From NCBI GenBank assembly GCA_964413265.1, contig CAYPRX010000119.1, positions 15,445 through 79,444 of the forward strand: 64,000 nt of DNA, read 5' to 3'. This DNA is from an uncultured Brevinematales bacterium (GTDB lineage Bacteria > Spirochaetota > Brevinematia > Brevinematales > JAOACQ01). Within the stretch, counting starts at the first letter, position 1, and the number at the start of each line of letters is the position of its first letter. A program made the position numbers and the translations under genes. Below are positions 1,490 through 9,001 of the stretch, in pieces. The notes under the pieces are model-generated. The model saw only the letters and a program-made list of their open reading frames with translations, was not told the DNA's origin and made no database searches.

Positions 1490-1648
1490 TTATGCAGTTT
1501 CATCAAAATTATTGCCGATTTCCGGTTCTTCCAGCCTGTGCTGCTGAACAGTATCTTCCTCCCTTTCAGCTTCCTCCGCTCTATTCTCCTCTCTTTGAAT
1601 CGGTTCCAAAACGATCTCAAGGGGCTGCTGTACCGGTGTGATAATCAT
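1490..1648 (-). CDS. Small acidic protein (52 aa), paralog of 6691-6894
   Basis: Below the ORF-track cutoff. MIITPVQQPLEIVLEPIQREENRAEEAEREEDTVQQHRLEEPEIGNNFDETA; AAGGA RBS; aligns in register with 6691-6894. Confidence 0.8.
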   Translation of the reverse strand: MIITPVQQPLEIVLEPIQREENRAEEAEREEDTVQQHRLEEPEIGNNFDETA

Positions 1649-1710: not shown

Positions 1711-1739
1711 TTGAAATTTTATTACCAAGGCATTAAAAT
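1711..1739 (+). promoter_or_regulatory. Sigma70-type promoter for the MFS-polyprenyl synthase-menA-ndh operon
   Basis: TTGAAA-N17-TAAAAT. Confidence 0.55.
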
Positions 1740-1774
1740 ACTTATCAAATAGCGTCTTGATGGAGGAAAATACT

Positions 1775-3007
1775 ATGACTTCTCCAAAGATCAAAGTTTA
1801 TCCCTACAGGTGGATGATACTATTTTCGTTTATGGCATTGATGGCATTGCAGCAGCTTCTCTGGATAACTTTTGCCAATATCACGGTTGAAGCTGCAGCA
1901 TTTTATAATGTATCTGCAATCAATATTGGTCTTTTATCAATGGTATTTATGATAGCATATGTATTTATGTCTATACCTTGTTCCTGGTTAATCGACACCT
2001 TCGGGTTTCGCTTCGCTGTGGGCATTGGAGCTGTAATAACAGGTATTTTCGGCCTCCTCCGCGGAATATTCGCAAGAGATTTCATGATGGTTCTTCTCTG
2101 CCAGATGGGAATTGCAATCGCCCAGCCCCTGGTCATTAATGCTGTAACAAAAATTTCCTCGAGGTGGTTTCCAATTGATGAAAGAGCCACAGCGGGTGGT
2201 CTCTCATGGCTGGGGGCTTATGCTGGAATTATTATCGGGCTGACCTTAACGCCTTTTCTGGCAAAGAGTAATGGGATTGAAGGAATGCTTAACTACTATG
2301 GGGGTGCATCGGCAGCTATTGCCCTGTTATTTATATTGACTGCAAGGGAAAATCCCCCGACTTTGCAGAACCCTGTCGAACAGGAGGTAAGGACTTTAGT
2401 CTTTGACGGTTTGAGAAGGCTTGTGGTAAAAAAGGATTTCCTATTCCTTATGCTGATATTTTTTATCGGTCTGGGTATTTTTAATGCCCTGGCGACATGG
2501 CTTGAGGAGATCGTTAAACCCAGGGGTTTTACTTCTGAACAGGCTGGGATAATGGGAGGTCTGATGGTATTAAGTGGAATATTGGGTTCAGCAGTCGTTC
2601 CGATGCTATCGGACAAACTCAGGAACCGTTCTCGATTTATCCTGGTGGCGGTAGCGGGCTCTATCCCAGGGCTCCTGGGAATAGCTTTTTCTTCTAACTA
2701 TATTATTGTGCTTTTATCATCAGCAATTTTAGGTTTTTTCCTTCTCAGTACCGCGCCTGTCGGATTTCAATATGGTGCTGAAATAGCATATCCTTCTCCT
2801 GAAGGGACATCCACGGGGGTTCTAATGATGATGGGTCAGATTTCCGGGATCGCCTTCATTTTCGGAATGGACCTCTTAAAGTCGCCTAAAACCGGAGCTA
2901 TGACATTTCCGATGATATTAATGATCATTTTAATGATGATCTGTATTCTGTTATCTTTTTTCCTAAAGGAATCCAAACTTATTCAGAAGGAAGAAGGTGA
3001 ACACTAG
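1775..3007 (+). CDS. MFS transporter (FLVCR/SLC49-like N-terminal signature)
   Basis: About 12 hydrophobic segments, motif A-like WLIDTFGFR and MLSDKLRNR, N-terminal VYPYRWMIL. Start placed at ATG 1775 after GGAGG. Confidence 0.88.
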   Translation: MTSPKIKVYPYRWMILFSFMALMALQQLLWITFANITVEAAAFYNVSAINIGLLSMVFMIAYVFMSIPCSWLIDTFGFRFAVGIGAVITGIFGLLRGIFARDFMMVLLCQMGIAIAQPLVINAVTKISSRWFPIDERATAGGLSWLGAYAGIIIGLTLTPFLAKSNGIEGMLNYYGGASAAIALLFILTARENPPTLQNPVEQEVRTLVFDGLRRLVVKKDFLFLMLIFFIGLGIFNALATWLEEIVKPRGFTSEQAGIMGGLMVLSGILGSAVVPMLSDKLRNRSRFILVAVAGSIPGLLGIAFSSNYIIVLLSSAILGFFLLSTAPVGFQYGAEIAYPSPEGTSTGVLMMMGQISGIAFIFGMDLLKSPKTGAMTFPMILMIILMMICILLSFFLKESKLIQKEEGEH

Positions 3008-3019
3008 GGTCAAAGGCGG

Positions 3020-4033
3020 TTGAACTGTATGGTAATTCAGGAATTTTATGAAAATTACTGGGGACGGATCGAAAGCCGTTTTATCGATATTATAAATAAA
3101 GGAAATCCTCCACCTTCAGTCATTGAAATCGTACTTTACCATTTTAAGAATCCCGGAAAACGCATGAGGTCTTTTCTATCAACAGGATTATTATTATGCT
3201 TTAATCCCAAGATCAGTGAAGGTGAACTGGATTTTGCAGCCTCAGTAGAACTCCTCCATAACGCCTCATTGATTCATGATGATCTTGAAGACCAGGATTT
3301 TTACAGACGGGGAGAATTGAATGTCTGGAAAAAATATTCCCCTGTACAGGCAATTAACATAGGAGACCTGATTTTTATAAAGTCGATCGAGATTCTCCTT
3401 GCTTCTGAGATCTCAGAGAATATTAAACTGCAATTGATCAGGAGAACTATGTTAGCGATAAATGAACTCATTCTTGGGCAGATGCTTGAAATATCATTCC
3501 GGGACACAATGAATATGACATGGAATGATTGGGAAAATATAGCTGCTCAAAAAACCGGTGCATTGTTCCGATTAATTTTTGAGGGTGTATTTTTAATTTC
3601 GGGTATTGATATACAGACTTGCGGGGATGAATTGAAAGGCATAGGCAGAGTAATGGGAATTCTTTACCAAATGAGGGATGATCTAATTGACGCAATGGGA
3701 TTGAAAGAAGGAAGAAGACAGGGGAGCGATGTCCTGGAAGGTAAAATTACCTGCCTTTCTATTAAAGCAATAGAGAAGGGAGTGGAAAAAGCTCAAATAG
3801 TCCGGGAAATGCTGTTAAACTCAGAGCAATCGGATCATGATTCCCGGATAAACAGATTAATTGAATTATATGAAAGCCAGGGAATTTTATCCGAATTACA
3901 AAAGTTTTTTTCGGGGCTCCTTGATCAATGCCGGAGTCACCCAATAATAATAAAATTTCCTCAGATAAAGCCTGCTTACAATAATTTTTTGAATATGTTG
4001 GAGATACGGGATAAAAAAAGGGGAGAATCATGA
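3020..4033 (+). CDS. Polyprenyl diphosphate synthase
   Basis: GKRMR, FARM LIHDDLEDQD followed by RRG, KTG, SARM QMRDDLID, EGKIT. Confidence 0.92.
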   Translation: MNCMVIQEFYENYWGRIESRFIDIINKGNPPPSVIEIVLYHFKNPGKRMRSFLSTGLLLCFNPKISEGELDFAASVELLHNASLIHDDLEDQDFYRRGELNVWKKYSPVQAINIGDLIFIKSIEILLASEISENIKLQLIRRTMLAINELILGQMLEISFRDTMNMTWNDWENIAAQKTGALFRLIFEGVFLISGIDIQTCGDELKGIGRVMGILYQMRDDLIDAMGLKEGRRQGSDVLEGKITCLSIKAIEKGVEKAQIVREMLLNSEQSDHDSRINRLIELYESQGILSELQKFFSGLLDQCRSHPIIIKFPQIKPAYNNFLNMLEIRDKKRGES

Positions 4034-4935
4034 AAATAAAAAACCTGCTTGTGGCGGCAAGGATGCCATTTGTAACTGCCAGTGTTTTTCCGGCAATATT
4101 AGCCATTGTCTGGTGCGCTTTTGTAGCCGGAAAATTTAATCCCTGGTATGCATTATTATTAGTAATTGGGGTGTTTTTAGTTCATATCATGGCAAATACT
4201 ATTAACGATTATTATGATTGGAATGTTTCAGATGCATCAAATCCAAACGTCAGCCCTTTTAACGGAGGAAGCCGCAGTATAATAGGAGATCTGGTCCCCA
4301 GAAACCTGTTTTTATTGATCGCAATGGCTTGTTCTGTTATTCTCTTATGCATAGCATTGATTTTTATCTTAACAGGCAGATTTTTTGTACTTTATTTTTC
4401 TCTTGCTGGATTGCTTTTCGGATATTTTTATTCCTCTCCGCCTTTTAAAATGCATTCCCGAGGTCTGGGAGAATTATTTATTTTTCTGGCTTTTGGACCT
4501 GTTTTAAGTGCAGCCGTTTGCTATGTGATGACAGGAGTTGTCAGAAAGGAACATTTTTTAGTTGGGGTACCTGCAGGGTTAGCTACAGCAGCTATTTTAT
4601 GGATAAATCAGTTCCCTGATTATAACTCGGATAAATTTGCCGGGAAATGGAATCTAACCGTCAGACTTGGATTAAAAGCATCTCGTTATTTTTATTTACT
4701 ATTAATTATTTCAGTTTATATAGCTACTGGCCTGCTCATATGTTTTCAAATTTTCAGCATTTGGTCAGCTCTCATCATCATTTTGATTCCCGGAATAATA
4801 AAAGCCACTGGAATTCTTTTTAATAATTATAAAAATCCGAAAAAACTTCTCCCTGCACAGGGTTTTACAGTTCAATTCCAGATGCTGACAGTTTTACTTA
4901 CAACGGCCGGTATAATAATCGGGCATTGGATTTGA
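4030..4935 (+). CDS. menA: 1,4-dihydroxy-2-naphthoate polyprenyltransferase (UbiA/MenA family)
   Basis: NTINDYYD, GGSR, YSSPPF..GLGE, INQFPDYNSD..GK.NL.VRLG; multiple TM helices; ATGA overlap with the upstream gene. Confidence 0.85.
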   Translation: MKIKNLLVAARMPFVTASVFPAILAIVWCAFVAGKFNPWYALLLVIGVFLVHIMANTINDYYDWNVSDASNPNVSPFNGGSRSIIGDLVPRNLFLLIAMACSVILLCIALIFILTGRFFVLYFSLAGLLFGYFYSSPPFKMHSRGLGELFIFLAFGPVLSAAVCYVMTGVVRKEHFLVGVPAGLATAAILWINQFPDYNSDKFAGKWNLTVRLGLKASRYFYLLLIISVYIATGLLICFQIFSIWSALIIILIPGIIKATGILFNNYKNPKKLLPAQGFTVQFQMLTVLLTTAGIIIGHWI

Positions 4936-4936
4936 T

Positions 4937-6085
4937 ATGAAGATTATTATTGTGGGTGCTGGATTTGCTGGTGTAAAATGCGCAAAAAAACTGGCCTCTT
5001 TGAAGGGACATGAAATTACAATATTCAATAAAACTGATTATACGGCTATGCTTCCTTCACTGCCTGATGTTGCCGGGGGCAGGGTTAAAGAAAAGTTCCT
5101 TAAGGAAAAAATCGTCAGGCTCTTACCTGAAAATATCAGTTTTCTAGGAGAGACAGTCACTAATGTTGATTTAGATTCAAAAAATGTCTCTTCTGCTAAA
5201 AATATTTATCCGTATGATATATTAGTCCTTGCCAGCGGTGCTGAGGTAAATTATTACGGTTTTAATCAAAATCTGGATAAAATATATACTCTTGAAAATG
5301 TCGAAGACGCCTTGAAAATCAACAGGGAGATCTTAAAAAGGGCAAAGAATGGCAGTCTAAAAAATGTTGTTATATCAGGTGCGGGGTTCACTGGCCTTGA
5401 GGTTGGAGCGAACATACATGAAGCATTGAAATATTATCCTAATATAGCTATCAGGTTTATAGAAAAAACAAATATGGTCTTGAGTACTCAGGAGCCTCTT
5501 TTTGCATCTTATGTAAAGAAAGAGCTGGAAAGTATGGGACTTCTATTTTATATGGAAGACTATGTTAAATCCTTTGACGGCAATAAAGTCGTACTGGAAA
5601 GCGGAATGGAATTCGACAAGTCGGCCTTAATTTGGACAAGCGGCCTGAAGAGAGCCGTTCAAATCACCGGTAAAACAAAAGAACTGTCCAATGGCAGGCT
5701 TATTGTCAATAAGGACCTGAGAATTACGGGATACGATCATGTTTTTGCAATCGGGGATTGTTCCGCCTTTCTGGATCATGGGAATTATCTCAGAATGTCG
5801 GTAAATTATGCTCAAACAATGGGCACTATTGCCGGTGTGAATATAAAAAGACTCATCTATGATAAGCCTTTAAAAAATTACAAACCTTTTGATTTAGGAT
5901 GGATTCTGCCGGTTACTTATACAAGCGTAGGTTATGTCTTTAAACTAAGAATAAAGGGAAAGATTGGCGTAATAATGCATTATATTATTATGGGTTTTAA
6001 AAATTATAATTTGACCAATTTGATTGCATATTTTGGTTATTCATTAAAATTCTTTTTTTCCCGGAAGTTTTACAGAAATAAATAA
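4937..6085 (+). CDS. Type II NADH dehydrogenase-like NAD(P)/FAD oxidoreductase
   Basis: Two Rossmann motifs (GAGFAG, GAGFTGLE), YDILVLASG, VFAIGD. Confidence 0.85.
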   Translation: MKIIIVGAGFAGVKCAKKLASLKGHEITIFNKTDYTAMLPSLPDVAGGRVKEKFLKEKIVRLLPENISFLGETVTNVDLDSKNVSSAKNIYPYDILVLASGAEVNYYGFNQNLDKIYTLENVEDALKINREILKRAKNGSLKNVVISGAGFTGLEVGANIHEALKYYPNIAIRFIEKTNMVLSTQEPLFASYVKKELESMGLLFYMEDYVKSFDGNKVVLESGMEFDKSALIWTSGLKRAVQITGKTKELSNGRLIVNKDLRITGYDHVFAIGDCSAFLDHGNYLRMSVNYAQTMGTIAGVNIKRLIYDKPLKNYKPFDLGWILPVTYTSVGYVFKLRIKGKIGVIMHYIIMGFKNYNLTNLIAYFGYSLKFFFSRKFYRNK

Positions 6086-6546
6086 TCCGCAGGAATAGTA
6101 AGGATTTTGCTTTTAATTTCTTTAAGTATATTGAGTAACATGTTTATTTTATCATCCGGCAAATTTTTTAAAACACTTATGAAAATTGAATTCATCAAGC
6201 GATGTGATTCGTTATTTTGATTATATGCGCAAATACCTTTCGGCGTTAATTCTATGAATAATCTTGAACGGTTGCCAGGGTCGACAAATTTTGTTATCAT
6301 TCCCTTTTTTTCTAACTTTTTGACAATTTGAGAAACTGCTCCCTTTGTTATTCCTAGTTCTTTTGCGAGACCAATGATATAATGTTCATTTGATTCTGAA
6401 ATACATGTAATCATATTGATTTCTGAATTGTATAAAAGTGAATCTGTGCCAAAATACATAGCCTTTTTGTAGATATTCTGATATTTATCAAAAATATCCA
6501 TTAAAGTATTAATAATCAATTGATATTTATATTTTAAATTTTTCAT
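6070..6546 (-). CDS. MarR-family transcriptional regulator
   Basis: Winged HTH: LAKELGITKGAVSQIVKKLEKKGMI..DPGNRSR..LTPKG. Confidence 0.9.
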   Translation of the reverse strand: MKNLKYKYQLIINTLMDIFDKYQNIYKKAMYFGTDSLLYNSEINMITCISESNEHYIIGLAKELGITKGAVSQIVKKLEKKGMITKFVDPGNRSRLFIELTPKGICAYNQNNESHRLMNSIFISVLKNLPDDKINMLLNILKEIKSKILTIPADYLFL

Positions 6547-6631: not shown

Positions 6632-6660
6632 TTGACATTATATAAAAAAAAAAGTATATT
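6632..6660 (+). promoter_or_regulatory. Sigma70 promoter for 6691-6894
   Basis: TTGACA-N17-TATATT. Confidence 0.65.
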
Positions 6661-6690: not shown

Positions 6691-6894
6691 ATGTTAATAA
6701 CGCCTGTTCAACAATATAAAGAATTAACAACCGTCCAGAAACAAAGGGAAGAGATGAAAGCAATTGAAGAAAAAAAAGCAAACGAAACAGAAAGGCAGAC
6801 TAAGGCAAAAAAAGAGGAAGATTTAAAATTGCCCGAACAGAAACCTACAATGCTTAAAGAAAAGACCGGCAATATGGTTGATTTTACAGCCTGA
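6691..6894 (+). CDS. Small charged protein (67 aa), paralog of 1490-1648
   Basis: AGGAGG RBS; MLITPVQQ...QREE...GNMVDFTA. Confidence 0.85.
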   Translation: MLITPVQQYKELTTVQKQREEMKAIEEKKANETERQTKAKKEEDLKLPEQKPTMLKEKTGNMVDFTA

Positions 6895-7087: not shown

Positions 7088-8965
7088 TTACTTTCTCATG
7101 GCGAGTATTACGCCTTCCTCTATTGATAAAAAGAGGGCCTCAAAGATATTTTCCCTTGACAGCTCCTCGTTGAAGAGCCTTATGAGCCTTGCACCTTTTT
7201 TCTCCTCTGCAAGACCGAAAAAGAAATTATCGGTGAATAAAATACCTCCTTTTATAATTCTTTTTTTCAAAAGGTCGAGATACTCACGATAATTCCTCTT
7301 TTGGGCATCAAGGATAACCAGGTCAAAAACATCTTTGCAATTCTTGAGATATTCCATTGCGTCACAATTAAAGATGGAGACAGAAGGATTGTCCCCGAAG
7401 AGCTTTTTAGCCTTATGAAACCTTTTCATATCCCTTTCAATCGTCGTTATTCTGGCGGCCGGACCAGCTCCTCTGATGATCCACAAAGTGGAATAGCCAC
7501 TCCCTGTCCCGATCTCAAGGATATTGGAAGGTTTGGCTATCATTGTAATAAGATAAAGAAGTCTGGCGGAAATCGGCCTCAATACAGGGATATTCTCATT
7601 CACGGCTTCTTCATACAGCTCTTCCCATTCCGGTATATCCATGAATCCGTTTAGAAAGGATGTGTAATCATCCCTTCCAATCAGGACTTTATCCAGCACC
7701 TTATCAATAATCTGAAAAGATCCTGTATAGACATTCAGTAATCCGTTTTCATGTGCAGCAACCGGTATGCCGCTCGAATATTCTGCACGGTCGAGAATTG
7801 ATATCAAATCGAATAATGGTTTTCCGCCGCTCAACCTCGGTGATGGAAAGTCAAAAACAATGATCCTTTCGAACAAATCAGCATATTCTATAATCTTTCC
7901 GGCAATCAGCCTTATTTCCTTGTCGGATAAAATTCCTATATAAAGCCTTACTCGTTCAGGTCTGAAATAGTCCCTTATTGTCTTAAAGAGGCTTTCCAGA
8001 GAACTGTCGTTATGAGCCACGTCTATCAGATAATCTCCCCGTTTTTCCATTCTGAAAGGTATTCGAATCCTCGCCGCGCTCCTGATCCCTTCTTCCGTGA
8101 AAACTAGACCTGCAGCAGTAAGTCCAAGCAAAGAAAGCAGGAAATTTTCGATAAAAACATCCCCCTGTTCTGATATATAAACATTTTCTAAGCAGTATTC
8201 CGTATCATGAAAGTGCAGGATGAAATTGAAAATTCCTCCCCGCTGATTTCTTTCCATAATTTCATAACTTATGTTTTCCGGGAAGTAATAGAAAGGGGAA
8301 TTTTTTAAAACAACCTCTTCTTTAATTCTTTCAAGAGCCTCACCTGGCAATAATGAAGCTACTGACGGTATCTTTTCTTTTATTATGCCAGCTTTTTCAC
8401 CTGCGATCTCTTTAAGAGTGTTGCCAAGAACGGCTGTATGATCGAAGCTTATCGATGTTATTATCGAGACTTCCGGTAAACAAAAATTTGTTGAATCAAG
8501 CCTACCTCCAAGCCCGGTTTCAAGTACTGCATAATCGCAGGTATTGCAGATAAAATATGTTATTGCCAGGAATGTCAGGATATCGAAATAAGTCGGTTTT
8601 TCAGTTTCCCCATATTTCATTATATAATCAGAGTATTTTTCAATTAGTAGAATGAATTCCCGATCGCTTATCTCTTCACTGTTTATTTTTATCCTCTCGT
8701 TGATTTTAAGAACATGGGGGGAGGTATAAAGGCCGACTTTAATATTTCCGAGAGATTCAAGAAGAGAGCTAGCATAATGTGCAGTACTGCCCTTACCCTT
8801 CGTGCCAGCAATGTGAACTATCTTGAGGCCTTTTGTATCTATACCGGCTCCGGCCAGCATTTTTTTTACCCTATCAGGGACATACCTTCCAGGTTCATAT
8901 TTCCTTGGTGTTTTTTCATGGTTTATGAAGGAATCCAGAAATTCAATGGCAGTATCCATGGTCAT
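7088..8965 (-). CDS. folC: Folylpolyglutamate synthase/dihydrofolate synthase fused to a C-terminal SAM-dependent O-methyltransferase
   Basis: HIAGTKGKGST, YTSPH, LETGLGGRLDSTN, EKAGIIK, IDVAHN; C-terminal ILEIGTGSGYST..FDLVILDAQK..DNFFF. Start placed at ATG 8965 after GGAG. Confidence 0.85.
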   Translation of the reverse strand: MTMDTAIEFLDSFINHEKTPRKYEPGRYVPDRVKKMLAGAGIDTKGLKIVHIAGTKGKGSTAHYASSLLESLGNIKVGLYTSPHVLKINERIKINSEEISDREFILLIEKYSDYIMKYGETEKPTYFDILTFLAITYFICNTCDYAVLETGLGGRLDSTNFCLPEVSIITSISFDHTAVLGNTLKEIAGEKAGIIKEKIPSVASLLPGEALERIKEEVVLKNSPFYYFPENISYEIMERNQRGGIFNFILHFHDTEYCLENVYISEQGDVFIENFLLSLLGLTAAGLVFTEEGIRSAARIRIPFRMEKRGDYLIDVAHNDSSLESLFKTIRDYFRPERVRLYIGILSDKEIRLIAGKIIEYADLFERIIVFDFPSPRLSGGKPLFDLISILDRAEYSSGIPVAAHENGLLNVYTGSFQIIDKVLDKVLIGRDDYTSFLNGFMDIPEWEELYEEAVNENIPVLRPISARLLYLITMIAKPSNILEIGTGSGYSTLWIIRGAGPAARITTIERDMKRFHKAKKLFGDNPSVSIFNCDAMEYLKNCKDVFDLVILDAQKRNYREYLDLLKKRIIKGGILFTDNFFFGLAEEKKGARLIRLFNEELSRENIFEALFLSIEEGVILAMRK

Positions 8966-9001
8966 TTTAATCTCCATTCATTAATTATTAATTGAATAGA
9001 T

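Follow-up and report, generated by a model that had tools for sequence, protein, structure and literature searches.

A polyprenyl synthase, MenA-like prenyltransferase and NDH-2 gene trio of an uncultured Brevinematales bacterium and its proposed role in respiration with scavenged quinone head groups and heme

We analyzed a stretch of 64,000 nucleotides (the window) from an uncultured Brevinematales bacterium of the Spirochaetota (contig CAYPRX010000119.1 of assembly GCA_964413265.1, positions 15,445 to 79,444 of the forward strand). Between positions 1775 and 6085 the window carries four co-directional open reading frames (ORFs) on the plus strand, which encode a transporter of the major facilitator superfamily (MFS), a polyprenyl diphosphate synthase, a membrane prenyltransferase of the UbiA superfamily and a Pyr_redox_2 flavoprotein. 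The last three genes are referred to as the trio. The explanation that we favor, with moderate confidence, is that the trio serves a two-enzyme respiratory chain in a bacterium auxotrophic for both heme and quinone, the quinone being made by adding a tail to an imported naphthoquinone head.

According to this proposal, a dedicated trans-polyprenyl diphosphate synthase would supply the isoprenoid tail and a prenyltransferase of the MenA/UBIAD1 type would join it to the naphthoquinone head. A type-2 NADH:quinone oxidoreductase (NDH-2) would pass the electrons of NADH to the resulting membrane quinone, and cytochrome bd, loaded with imported heme, would re-oxidize the quinol, so that electrons would pass from NADH through NDH-2, (demethyl)menaquinone and cytochrome bd to O2. 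The head group would come from neighboring microbes, either as DHNA (1,4-dihydroxy-2-naphthoic acid) or as a naphthoquinone with a short chain or no tail. For an anaerobe that otherwise ferments and produces hydrogen, such a chain would, given a supply of both cofactors, restore NAD+ and remove O2.

Results

The prenyltransferase belongs to a divergent clade of the MenA/UBIAD1 branch

The prenyltransferase gene (positions 4030 to 4935, plus strand) encodes a protein of 301 amino acids (aa) with eight transmembrane-like windows. The protein matched PF01040 with 94 bits (1e-26), above the cut-off of 34.2. The ten best NCBIfam models for the protein (PRENYLTRANSFERASE) were all MenA or MenA-type models, while ChlG reached 40 bits and the geranylgeranylglyceryl phosphate transferase 21 bits. 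The profile of its clade found human UBIAD1 as the best relative with a solved structure, over the full length (125 bits, E 2.8e-35). Scores against other branches were 45 bits (5.6e-11) for chlorophyll synthase and 32 bits (8e-7) for digeranylgeranylglyceryl phosphate (DGGGP) synthase. Alignment of the clade profile to E. coli MenA by hhalign ran end to end over 299 columns with a probability of 99.8%. The AlphaFold2 model showed the UbiA fold at a predicted local distance difference test (pLDDT) value of 91.4 and had its highest TM-score to UBIAD1. Both Asp-rich motifs (NDxxDxxxD and DxxxD) were invariant in the near clade (N56, N59, D60, D63, D68 and N193, D197, D201). Profiles and model thus place the protein in the MenA/UBIAD1 branch, within a divergent clade. 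DGGGP synthase, which an earlier interpretation of the locus from its letters (the sequence-only reading) had named as the identity that would contradict its own proposal, was rejected on the profile scores, as was chlorophyll synthase.

In the phylogenetic tree, the protein grouped with a Chitinispirillaceae sequence with 100/100 support, adjoining a large Desulfobacteria clade. The conserved neighbors of the Desulfobacteria homologs were housekeeping genes and uninformative. Scanning the genome collection with the clade alignment added no further named genomes to the near clade.

Some members of the wider MenA-like clade have architectures that are unusual for a membrane prenyltransferase. 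Homologs P0023, P0032, P0036–P0038 (P0037 being annotated as Anaerolineales) and others carry N-terminal PAS fusions, and homologs among P0104–P0120 are fused to a pyridoxamine-phosphate-oxidase-like flavin mononucleotide (FMN) domain (P0104 and P0114 being annotated as Marinimicrobia). Identical UbiA sequences were present in a Bacteroidales and an Anaerolineales metagenome-assembled genome (MAG; L054 and L057), both inside a clade of mostly Desulfobacteraceae, for which a binning error is more likely than transfer. The genome to which the window belongs (G000) also has a second gene of the UbiA superfamily (C88:64311-65180, 289 aa), with only weak matches to archaeal-type prenyltransferases; it has a SixA-like phosphatase on one side and a CxxC membrane protein on the other.

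The flavoprotein is a true NDH-2 by sequence and fold

The flavoprotein gene (positions 4937 to 6085, plus strand) encodes 382 aa. The closest solved structure was NDH-2 of Staphylococcus aureus (5NA1, E 6e-33, residues 2-351), then YjlD of Bacillus subtilis and NDH-2 of C. thermarum (4NWZ), both at 1e-21, followed by FSP1, Ndi1 and PfNDH2. The AlphaFold2 model, built with 44 homologs, reached a pLDDT of 95.1. In a Foldseek search with this model, ranks 1-15 were bacterial NDH-2 throughout (TM-scores 0.81-0.86). FSP1 scored 0.70-0.75, and coenzyme A-disulfide reductase (CoADR) and Nox reached about 0.7 over fewer columns. Two GxGxxG motifs of NDH-2 are present (GAGFAG, residues 7-12, and GAGFTGLE, residues 148-155), and G7, G9, G12, G148, G150, G153 and E155, the glutamate of GLE, were invariant in the 44 homologs. 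The AQxAxQ sequence is the quinone-site motif of NDH-2; residues 291-297 read YAQTMGT, retaining AQ but not the remainder of the motif. A redox cysteine of the CoADR type is missing, as the only cysteines are C15 and C275 and none occupies the position equivalent to Cys43 of CoADR.

No 19-residue window of the protein reached the threshold for a transmembrane helix. In the model, C-terminal strands (321-340) are followed by two hydrophobic helices, at 342-354 (mean hydrophobicity 0.65) and at 359-373 (0.48), and then by a basic tail. The protein is of ordinary length and, as the sequence-only reading had stated, lacks the extra C-terminal region found in the Ndh2 of extracellular electron transfer (EET). 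Sequence and fold matches therefore let us assign it as a true NDH-2, a monotopic membrane flavoprotein with predicted NADH:quinone oxidoreductase activity.

The polyprenyl diphosphate synthase

The synthase (positions 3029 to 4033, plus strand, 334 aa from ATG 3029) matched PF00348 with 5.6e-45 and has both DDxxD motifs, as DDLED and DDLID. Its 'LHNASLIHDDLED' motif presumably recalls eukaryotic type-III geranylgeranyl diphosphate synthases. Positions -5 and -4 before the first DDxxD are Ala and Ser; IspA has Tyr at -5. A prediction of chain length by this -5/-4 rule was abandoned: the rule excludes only an enzyme like farnesyl diphosphate synthase, and scores of hidden Markov models (HMMs) favor short-chain families. 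A second synthase is encoded on contig C41. It is short-chain-like, with Phe at -4, and is presumably the housekeeping enzyme. We predict that the synthase of the locus is a dedicated supplier of tails.

Genes for ring synthesis, heme synthesis and respiration in the genome

Gene families were searched in the genome of the bacterium itself (95.4% complete, 0.08% contamination) and in the genomes of four relatives, two of them with contigs on the Mb scale; this audit was targeted, not exhaustive. The sequence-only reading had reported that DHNA ring-synthesis genes (men or mqn) are lacking from the window. The window's first 38 kb contained none, and the absence of both routes extended to all genomes of the audit. 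MqnA/D were not detected, and MenB, MenD, MqnC and MenG/UbiE gave nothing above the cut-off in the own genome and the four relatives; the MenB-like matches (50 bits) lay inside a 765-aa FadB-like ORF. MenC and MenH were not found in the own genome by tblastn with the E. coli proteins. A candidate isochorismate synthase was rejected, since the MenF-like match is TrpE (582 vs 518 bits). Chorismate synthase and TrpE are present, and so is the shikimate pathway. With neither of the known pathways to the naphthoate ring (men and futalosine) present, the bacterium most likely takes the head group up. The claim that scavenged head groups are prenylated to feed the bacterium's own NADH dehydrogenase thus held for the tailing and NDH-2 core and for the missing ring synthesis, and from this absence we infer salvage, with DHNA as a candidate head group. 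Since MenG/UbiE was not recognizable, the quinone product is probably demethylmenaquinone.

HemB, the single marker on which the absence of heme synthesis rests, was absent from four spirochaete genomes (the own genome and three relatives). Since tetrapyrrole synthesis is missing by this marker, cytochrome bd would need imported heme. A search for terminal reductases, as suggested by the sequence-only reading, led to CydA and CydB of cytochrome bd on contig C3 (1389-3777), another contig than that of the trio.

Two further candidates for quinone-linked enzymes were rejected. Complex I had been considered as a second quinone reducer, but the Nuo-like cluster contains the NiFe-ligand motifs RVCGICSHSH and DPCFSCTDR together with a maturation protease and is a group-4 hydrogenase. 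The FrdA-like match passed the NadB cut-off (477 vs 453 bits), and FrdB, FrdC and FrdD of fumarate reductase were not found. Since the Nuo-like cluster is a hydrogenase and the FrdA-like protein is NadB, NDH-2 and cytochrome bd were the only recognizable quinone-linked respiratory enzymes found.

The group-4 membrane-bound NiFe hydrogenase extends from C13:163644-171094 into C18:1-2528 and includes three Mrp/NuoL-like antiporter subunits. As the cluster is split across them, the ends of contigs C13 and C18 must adjoin.

Conservation and origin of the trio

The order synthase-UbiA-NDH-2 was conserved in three relatives of the same genus of the Brevinematales (Spirochaetota), with 65-72% identity, and the trio was also found in a 93%-identical relative (L193). 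Metagenome contigs L190–L192 contain synthase-UbiA-NDH-2-CydA-CydB, and contig L189 has UbiA-NDH-2-CydA-CydB without the synthase. Identities were 52-63% in L190–L192; across the contigs UbiA was 56% and NDH-2 61-63% identical. A Chitinispirillaceae MAG shows the order synthase-UbiA-Rrf2-CydA-CydB. In loci of the wider family, UbiA was paired with a synthase in 33 of 88, and UbiE was added in one locus. Of all contextual evidence for a respiratory quinone as the product of the prenyltransferase, the link to the genes of a quinol oxidase, cydAB, is the strongest.

Among the 43 genomes of the class, only those of the window's genus had the MenA-like gene, four of five in number. This confinement and the grouping with Chitinispirillaceae in the tree suggest that the trio was acquired horizontally. 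It resembles a fragment of a larger synthase-MenA-NDH-2-CydAB module, which is found intact in uncultured relatives.

In all three genus relatives (L194–L196, identical to L001–L003), a DoxX gene stands directly upstream of the trio (about 5570-5990), at the position taken by the MFS gene in the window. One of the genus relatives has a UbiE-like methyltransferase just before DoxX. In the own genome, DoxX is encoded in a cluster on contig C23 (782-6068) together with MerR, an EmrB-like MFS protein, dienelactone hydrolase, pirin and an aldo-keto reductase, a grouping suggestive of a unit for quinone or electrophile stress. Another copy of DoxX lies at C6:39620-40009.

The MFS transporter and the MarR regulator are lineage-specific neighbors

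The MFS gene (positions 1775 to 3007, plus strand) encodes a FLVCR-family transporter of 410 aa with about 11 transmembrane-like windows (PF07690, 5e-34). The protein matched the structures of human FLVCR1/2 with 8.5e-37 over residues 6-398. Relatives with 54-77% identity occur in many phyla (Bacteroidota, Chloroflexota, Bacillota and others) next to housekeeping genes, as seen in 80 loci. The GC content of the MFS gene is 0.43, that of the trio 0.36-0.38 and that of the genome 0.403. In a Brevinematales relative, the MFS gene is on another contig than the trio. Downstream of the trio, a MarR-family regulator is encoded on the minus strand (6070 to 6546; PF01047 at 1.7e-11). It is convergent with the NDH-2 gene, with an overlap of 16 bp at the 3' end, and no MarR gene was present beside the trio in L001–L004. 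MFS and MarR were joined to the trio solely in the 93%-identical relative L193.

We concluded that the FLVCR-type MFS protein and MarR are lineage-specific additions outside the conserved module. The MFS protein was rejected as a conserved importer of the head group, as neither the 80 loci nor the genus relatives provided synteny support. It is possible that MarR acts as a local regulator. The sequence-only reading had counted the MFS gene into a four-gene unit and proposed to survey its synteny. The survey upheld the linkage of synthase, MenA-type prenyltransferase and NDH-2, which is conserved in the genus relatives, in L193 and in the metagenome contigs. The MFS gene had to be removed from the unit, given the spread of the FLVCR family across phyla, the DoxX gene in its place in the genus relatives and its differing GC content.

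Layout of the locus and transcription signals

A terminator of the gene upstream of the MFS gene is located at about 1455-1485. A promoter-like site (TTGAAA-17-TAAAAT, positions 1711 to 1739, plus strand) was found by a consensus scan and is a consensus match only. A ribosome binding site (GGAGGA, 1762-1767, plus strand) was read from the sequence in front of the MFS gene. Direct reading of the junctions showed that the MFS gene ends with TAG at 3005-3007, synthase and UbiA genes overlap by ATGA (4030-4033), and a gap of 1 bp separates the UbiA gene from ATG 4937 of the NDH-2 gene. The longest ORF of the synthase opens at TTG 3020. We consider ATG 3029 the probable start because of the spacing to AAGGCGG, the N-termini of the relatives (MIIQEFYE...) and a 334-aa gene call in the 93%-identical contig. 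The four tightly packed genes described in the sequence-only reading are thus present with the overlap and the 1-bp gap as given there; its 12-bp gap between MFS and synthase presupposes TTG 3020 and is probably 21 bp. A single promoter and a single transcript for the four genes appear plausible from this layout, and the MFS gene is probably co-transcribed with the trio.

The block is flanked by genes for an aldo-keto reductase, a 191-aa protein, MarR, a FolC-methyltransferase fusion, MutL and Lgt. The FolC fusion (629 aa, 7088-8977, minus strand) combines FolC (folylpolyglutamate/dihydrofolate synthase; TIGR01499 at 258 bits) with a C-terminal class-I O-methyltransferase domain (PF01596).

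Two small acidic ORFs that face outward bracket the block from MFS to MarR (1490-1648, minus strand, 52 aa, and 6691-6894, plus strand, 67 aa). Both start with M[I/L]ITPVQQ and end with (F)D(E/F)TA, and their identity is 36% at a pairwise E of 4e-7. They are the sole two of their type in the genome, and neither matches an NCBIfam model. Their near-consensus sigma-70 promoters resemble each other (1700-1672, minus strand, and 6632-6660, plus strand). Except for these two similar promoters, no inverted repeats were found around the block at the DNA level.

Discussion

The data support a respiratory role for the trio with moderate confidence, and several observations weigh against the chain as we propose it. 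The prenyltransferase scored below every curated MenA cut-off (TIGR00751, 80.5 vs 102.15 bits; TIGR02235, 115.6 vs 225; NF004751, 111.6 vs 264), and in the tree its branch is long and well removed from E. coli MenA. Because of these scores and this branch, DHNA is a predicted rather than an established acceptor. The assumption that the clade provides the sole MenA in DHNA-making genomes gained no support. MenB was above the cut-off in none of the seven sister-clade genomes with a homolog, and MqnA/D of the futalosine pathway occurred in only two of the seven, in one of which a separate UbiA-family gene adjoins MqnA/D. Since the sister-clade genomes also lack MenB and mostly lack MqnA/D, co-occurrence gives no independent support for DHNA or naphthoate as the substrate. 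The CydA protein of the own genome shares only about 36% identity with the CydA encoded alongside the module, and cytochrome bd was not found in two of the four trio-bearing members of the genus (G024 and G025). In these two, the trio must therefore have a different electron sink or serve another purpose, such as keeping a membrane quinone pool reduced. Among the genes analyzed, no importer of the head group was found, and a pathway missing from a MAG can never be taken as absolutely absent.

Human UBIAD1 converts menadione to menaquinone-4 (MK-4), and FSP1 is an NAD(P)H:quinone reductase. By analogy, the trio could serve redox protection and not respiration, with NDH-2 keeping a membrane naphthoquinol reduced by NAD(P)H as an antioxidant or electrophile buffer and with cytochrome bd being incidental. 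UBIAD1 is the nearest solved relative of the prenyltransferase clade, FSP1 has the NDH-2 fold and is one of the flavoprotein's relatives of solved structure, and UBIAD1 adds a tail to a head group that the cell does not make, as we propose here. The two genus members with the trio and without cytochrome bd, the DoxX gene preceding the trio in all three genus relatives and the MarR gene flanking it in the window would also fit such a function. Unlike UBIAD1 and FSP1, however, the system described here belongs to a bacterial membrane, its flavoprotein is closer to bacterial NDH-2 (TM-scores 0.81-0.86) than to FSP1 (0.70-0.75), and cytochrome bd is present in the own genome as a respiratory partner. 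Moreover, four metagenome contigs and the Chitinispirillaceae MAG have the genes in a cluster with cydAB. We therefore regard redox protection as unlikely. A related and decidedly doubtful idea is that in the genus members with DoxX-synthase-MenA-NDH-2 and no cytochrome bd, perhaps in the bacterium of the window too, the genes form a bacterial counterpart of UBIAD1-FSP1, in which a scavenged head, once tailed and held in reduced form by NADH in the membrane, would provide a radical-trapping antioxidant for a strict anaerobe, and that they act as a horizontally mobile 'starter kit' for unrelated oxidases.

The head group might also be self-made, by a ring pathway that escaped recognition, or another chorismate-derived aromatic compound might be the acceptor, possibly yielding an unusual quinone. 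Chorismate synthase and TrpE would provide a basis for this, and the prenyltransferase clade is divergent, with scores below all MenA cut-offs. Most of the tested sister-clade genomes lack both MenB and MqnA/D, which would be odd if all were auxotrophs and could indicate an unrecognized route. Yet no candidate ring-forming genes were linked to the module in about 170 loci, and the profile similarity is specific to the MenA/UBIAD1 branch. The missing heme synthesis, as judged by HemB, fits a general scavenging lifestyle, and experiments have established this gene set together with auxotrophy in Streptococcus agalactiae (PMC6030563). Synthesis by the bacterium itself thus seems improbable to us.

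The third alternative is flavin-based EET, with the trio corresponding to DmkA, DmkB and Ndh2 and the electrons going to an extracellular acceptor. The EET locus of Listeria monocytogenes and Lactiplantibacillus plantarum comprises DmkA, DmkB, Ndh2, PplA, FmnB and EetA/B, and like the trio it brings NDH-2 together with a polyprenyl synthase and a dedicated prenyltransferase that resembles MenA. Genus members without cytochrome bd need some other electron sink, which EET could offer. In contrast to the EET locus, the NDH-2 of 382 aa is not extended by a C-terminal transmembrane region, genes like pplA, fmnB or eetA/B do not flank the locus here or in the relatives, as the sequence-only reading had already noted for pplA and fmnB at the locus itself, and the natural partner of the module in the relatives is the quinol oxidase cydAB and not an extracellular reductase. 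The organism is, moreover, a diderm, unlike the Gram-positive hosts of EET, and we know of no description of the Gram-positive EET route in diderms. For these reasons EET has very little to recommend it. Use of exogenous DHNA as well as quinone-dependent EET is described for L. plantarum (PMC10746273). The description of the locus as a new, stripped-down module of the EET type had to be given up, as the genes match the menA, ndh and cydAB set of S. agalactiae and lactic acid bacteria instead.

The closest precedent for a chain with scavenged cofactors is the operon of S. agalactiae, which is closer than the EET locus of Listeria. In S. agalactiae, cydAB(CD), ndh and menA form one operon in the absence of other men genes, exogenous DHNA or MK-4 is turned into demethylmenaquinone-10, and the heme likewise comes from outside (PMC6030563). 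As in S. agalactiae, a MenA-type prenyltransferase is linked to NDH-2 in the window, NDH-2 appears to be the sole electron entry point, cytochrome bd is the sole oxidase, and the remaining menaquinone pathway and heme synthesis are absent. The location of cydAB in the same cluster is a further likeness, which applies to the metagenomic relatives (L189–L192) and not to the own genome. The cydAB genes of the own genome are unlinked and of different ancestry, judging from the CydA identity of about 36%, and two sister genomes lack cytochrome bd. Further differences are that the synthase gene lies inside the cluster and that the prenyltransferase clade is divergent, below the MenA HMM cut-offs. 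The organism is not a Firmicute but a diderm of the Spirochaetota, represented by a Brevinematales-like MAG and known here from its genes.

Respiration with scavenged cofactors is already established experimentally in S. agalactiae and lactic acid bacteria, and the conceptual gain of our analysis is modest. New are the phylum and the divergent MenA-like clade, which is brought to light here with a function predicted from sequence. The compact five-gene module of tail synthase, prenyltransferase, NDH-2 and CydAB appears to move between phyla. If our interpretation is correct, respiration with scavenged heme and quinone would extend from Firmicutes to an uncultured lineage of the Spirochaetota, and DHNA or menadione together with hemin under micro-oxic conditions would be a hint for its cultivation.

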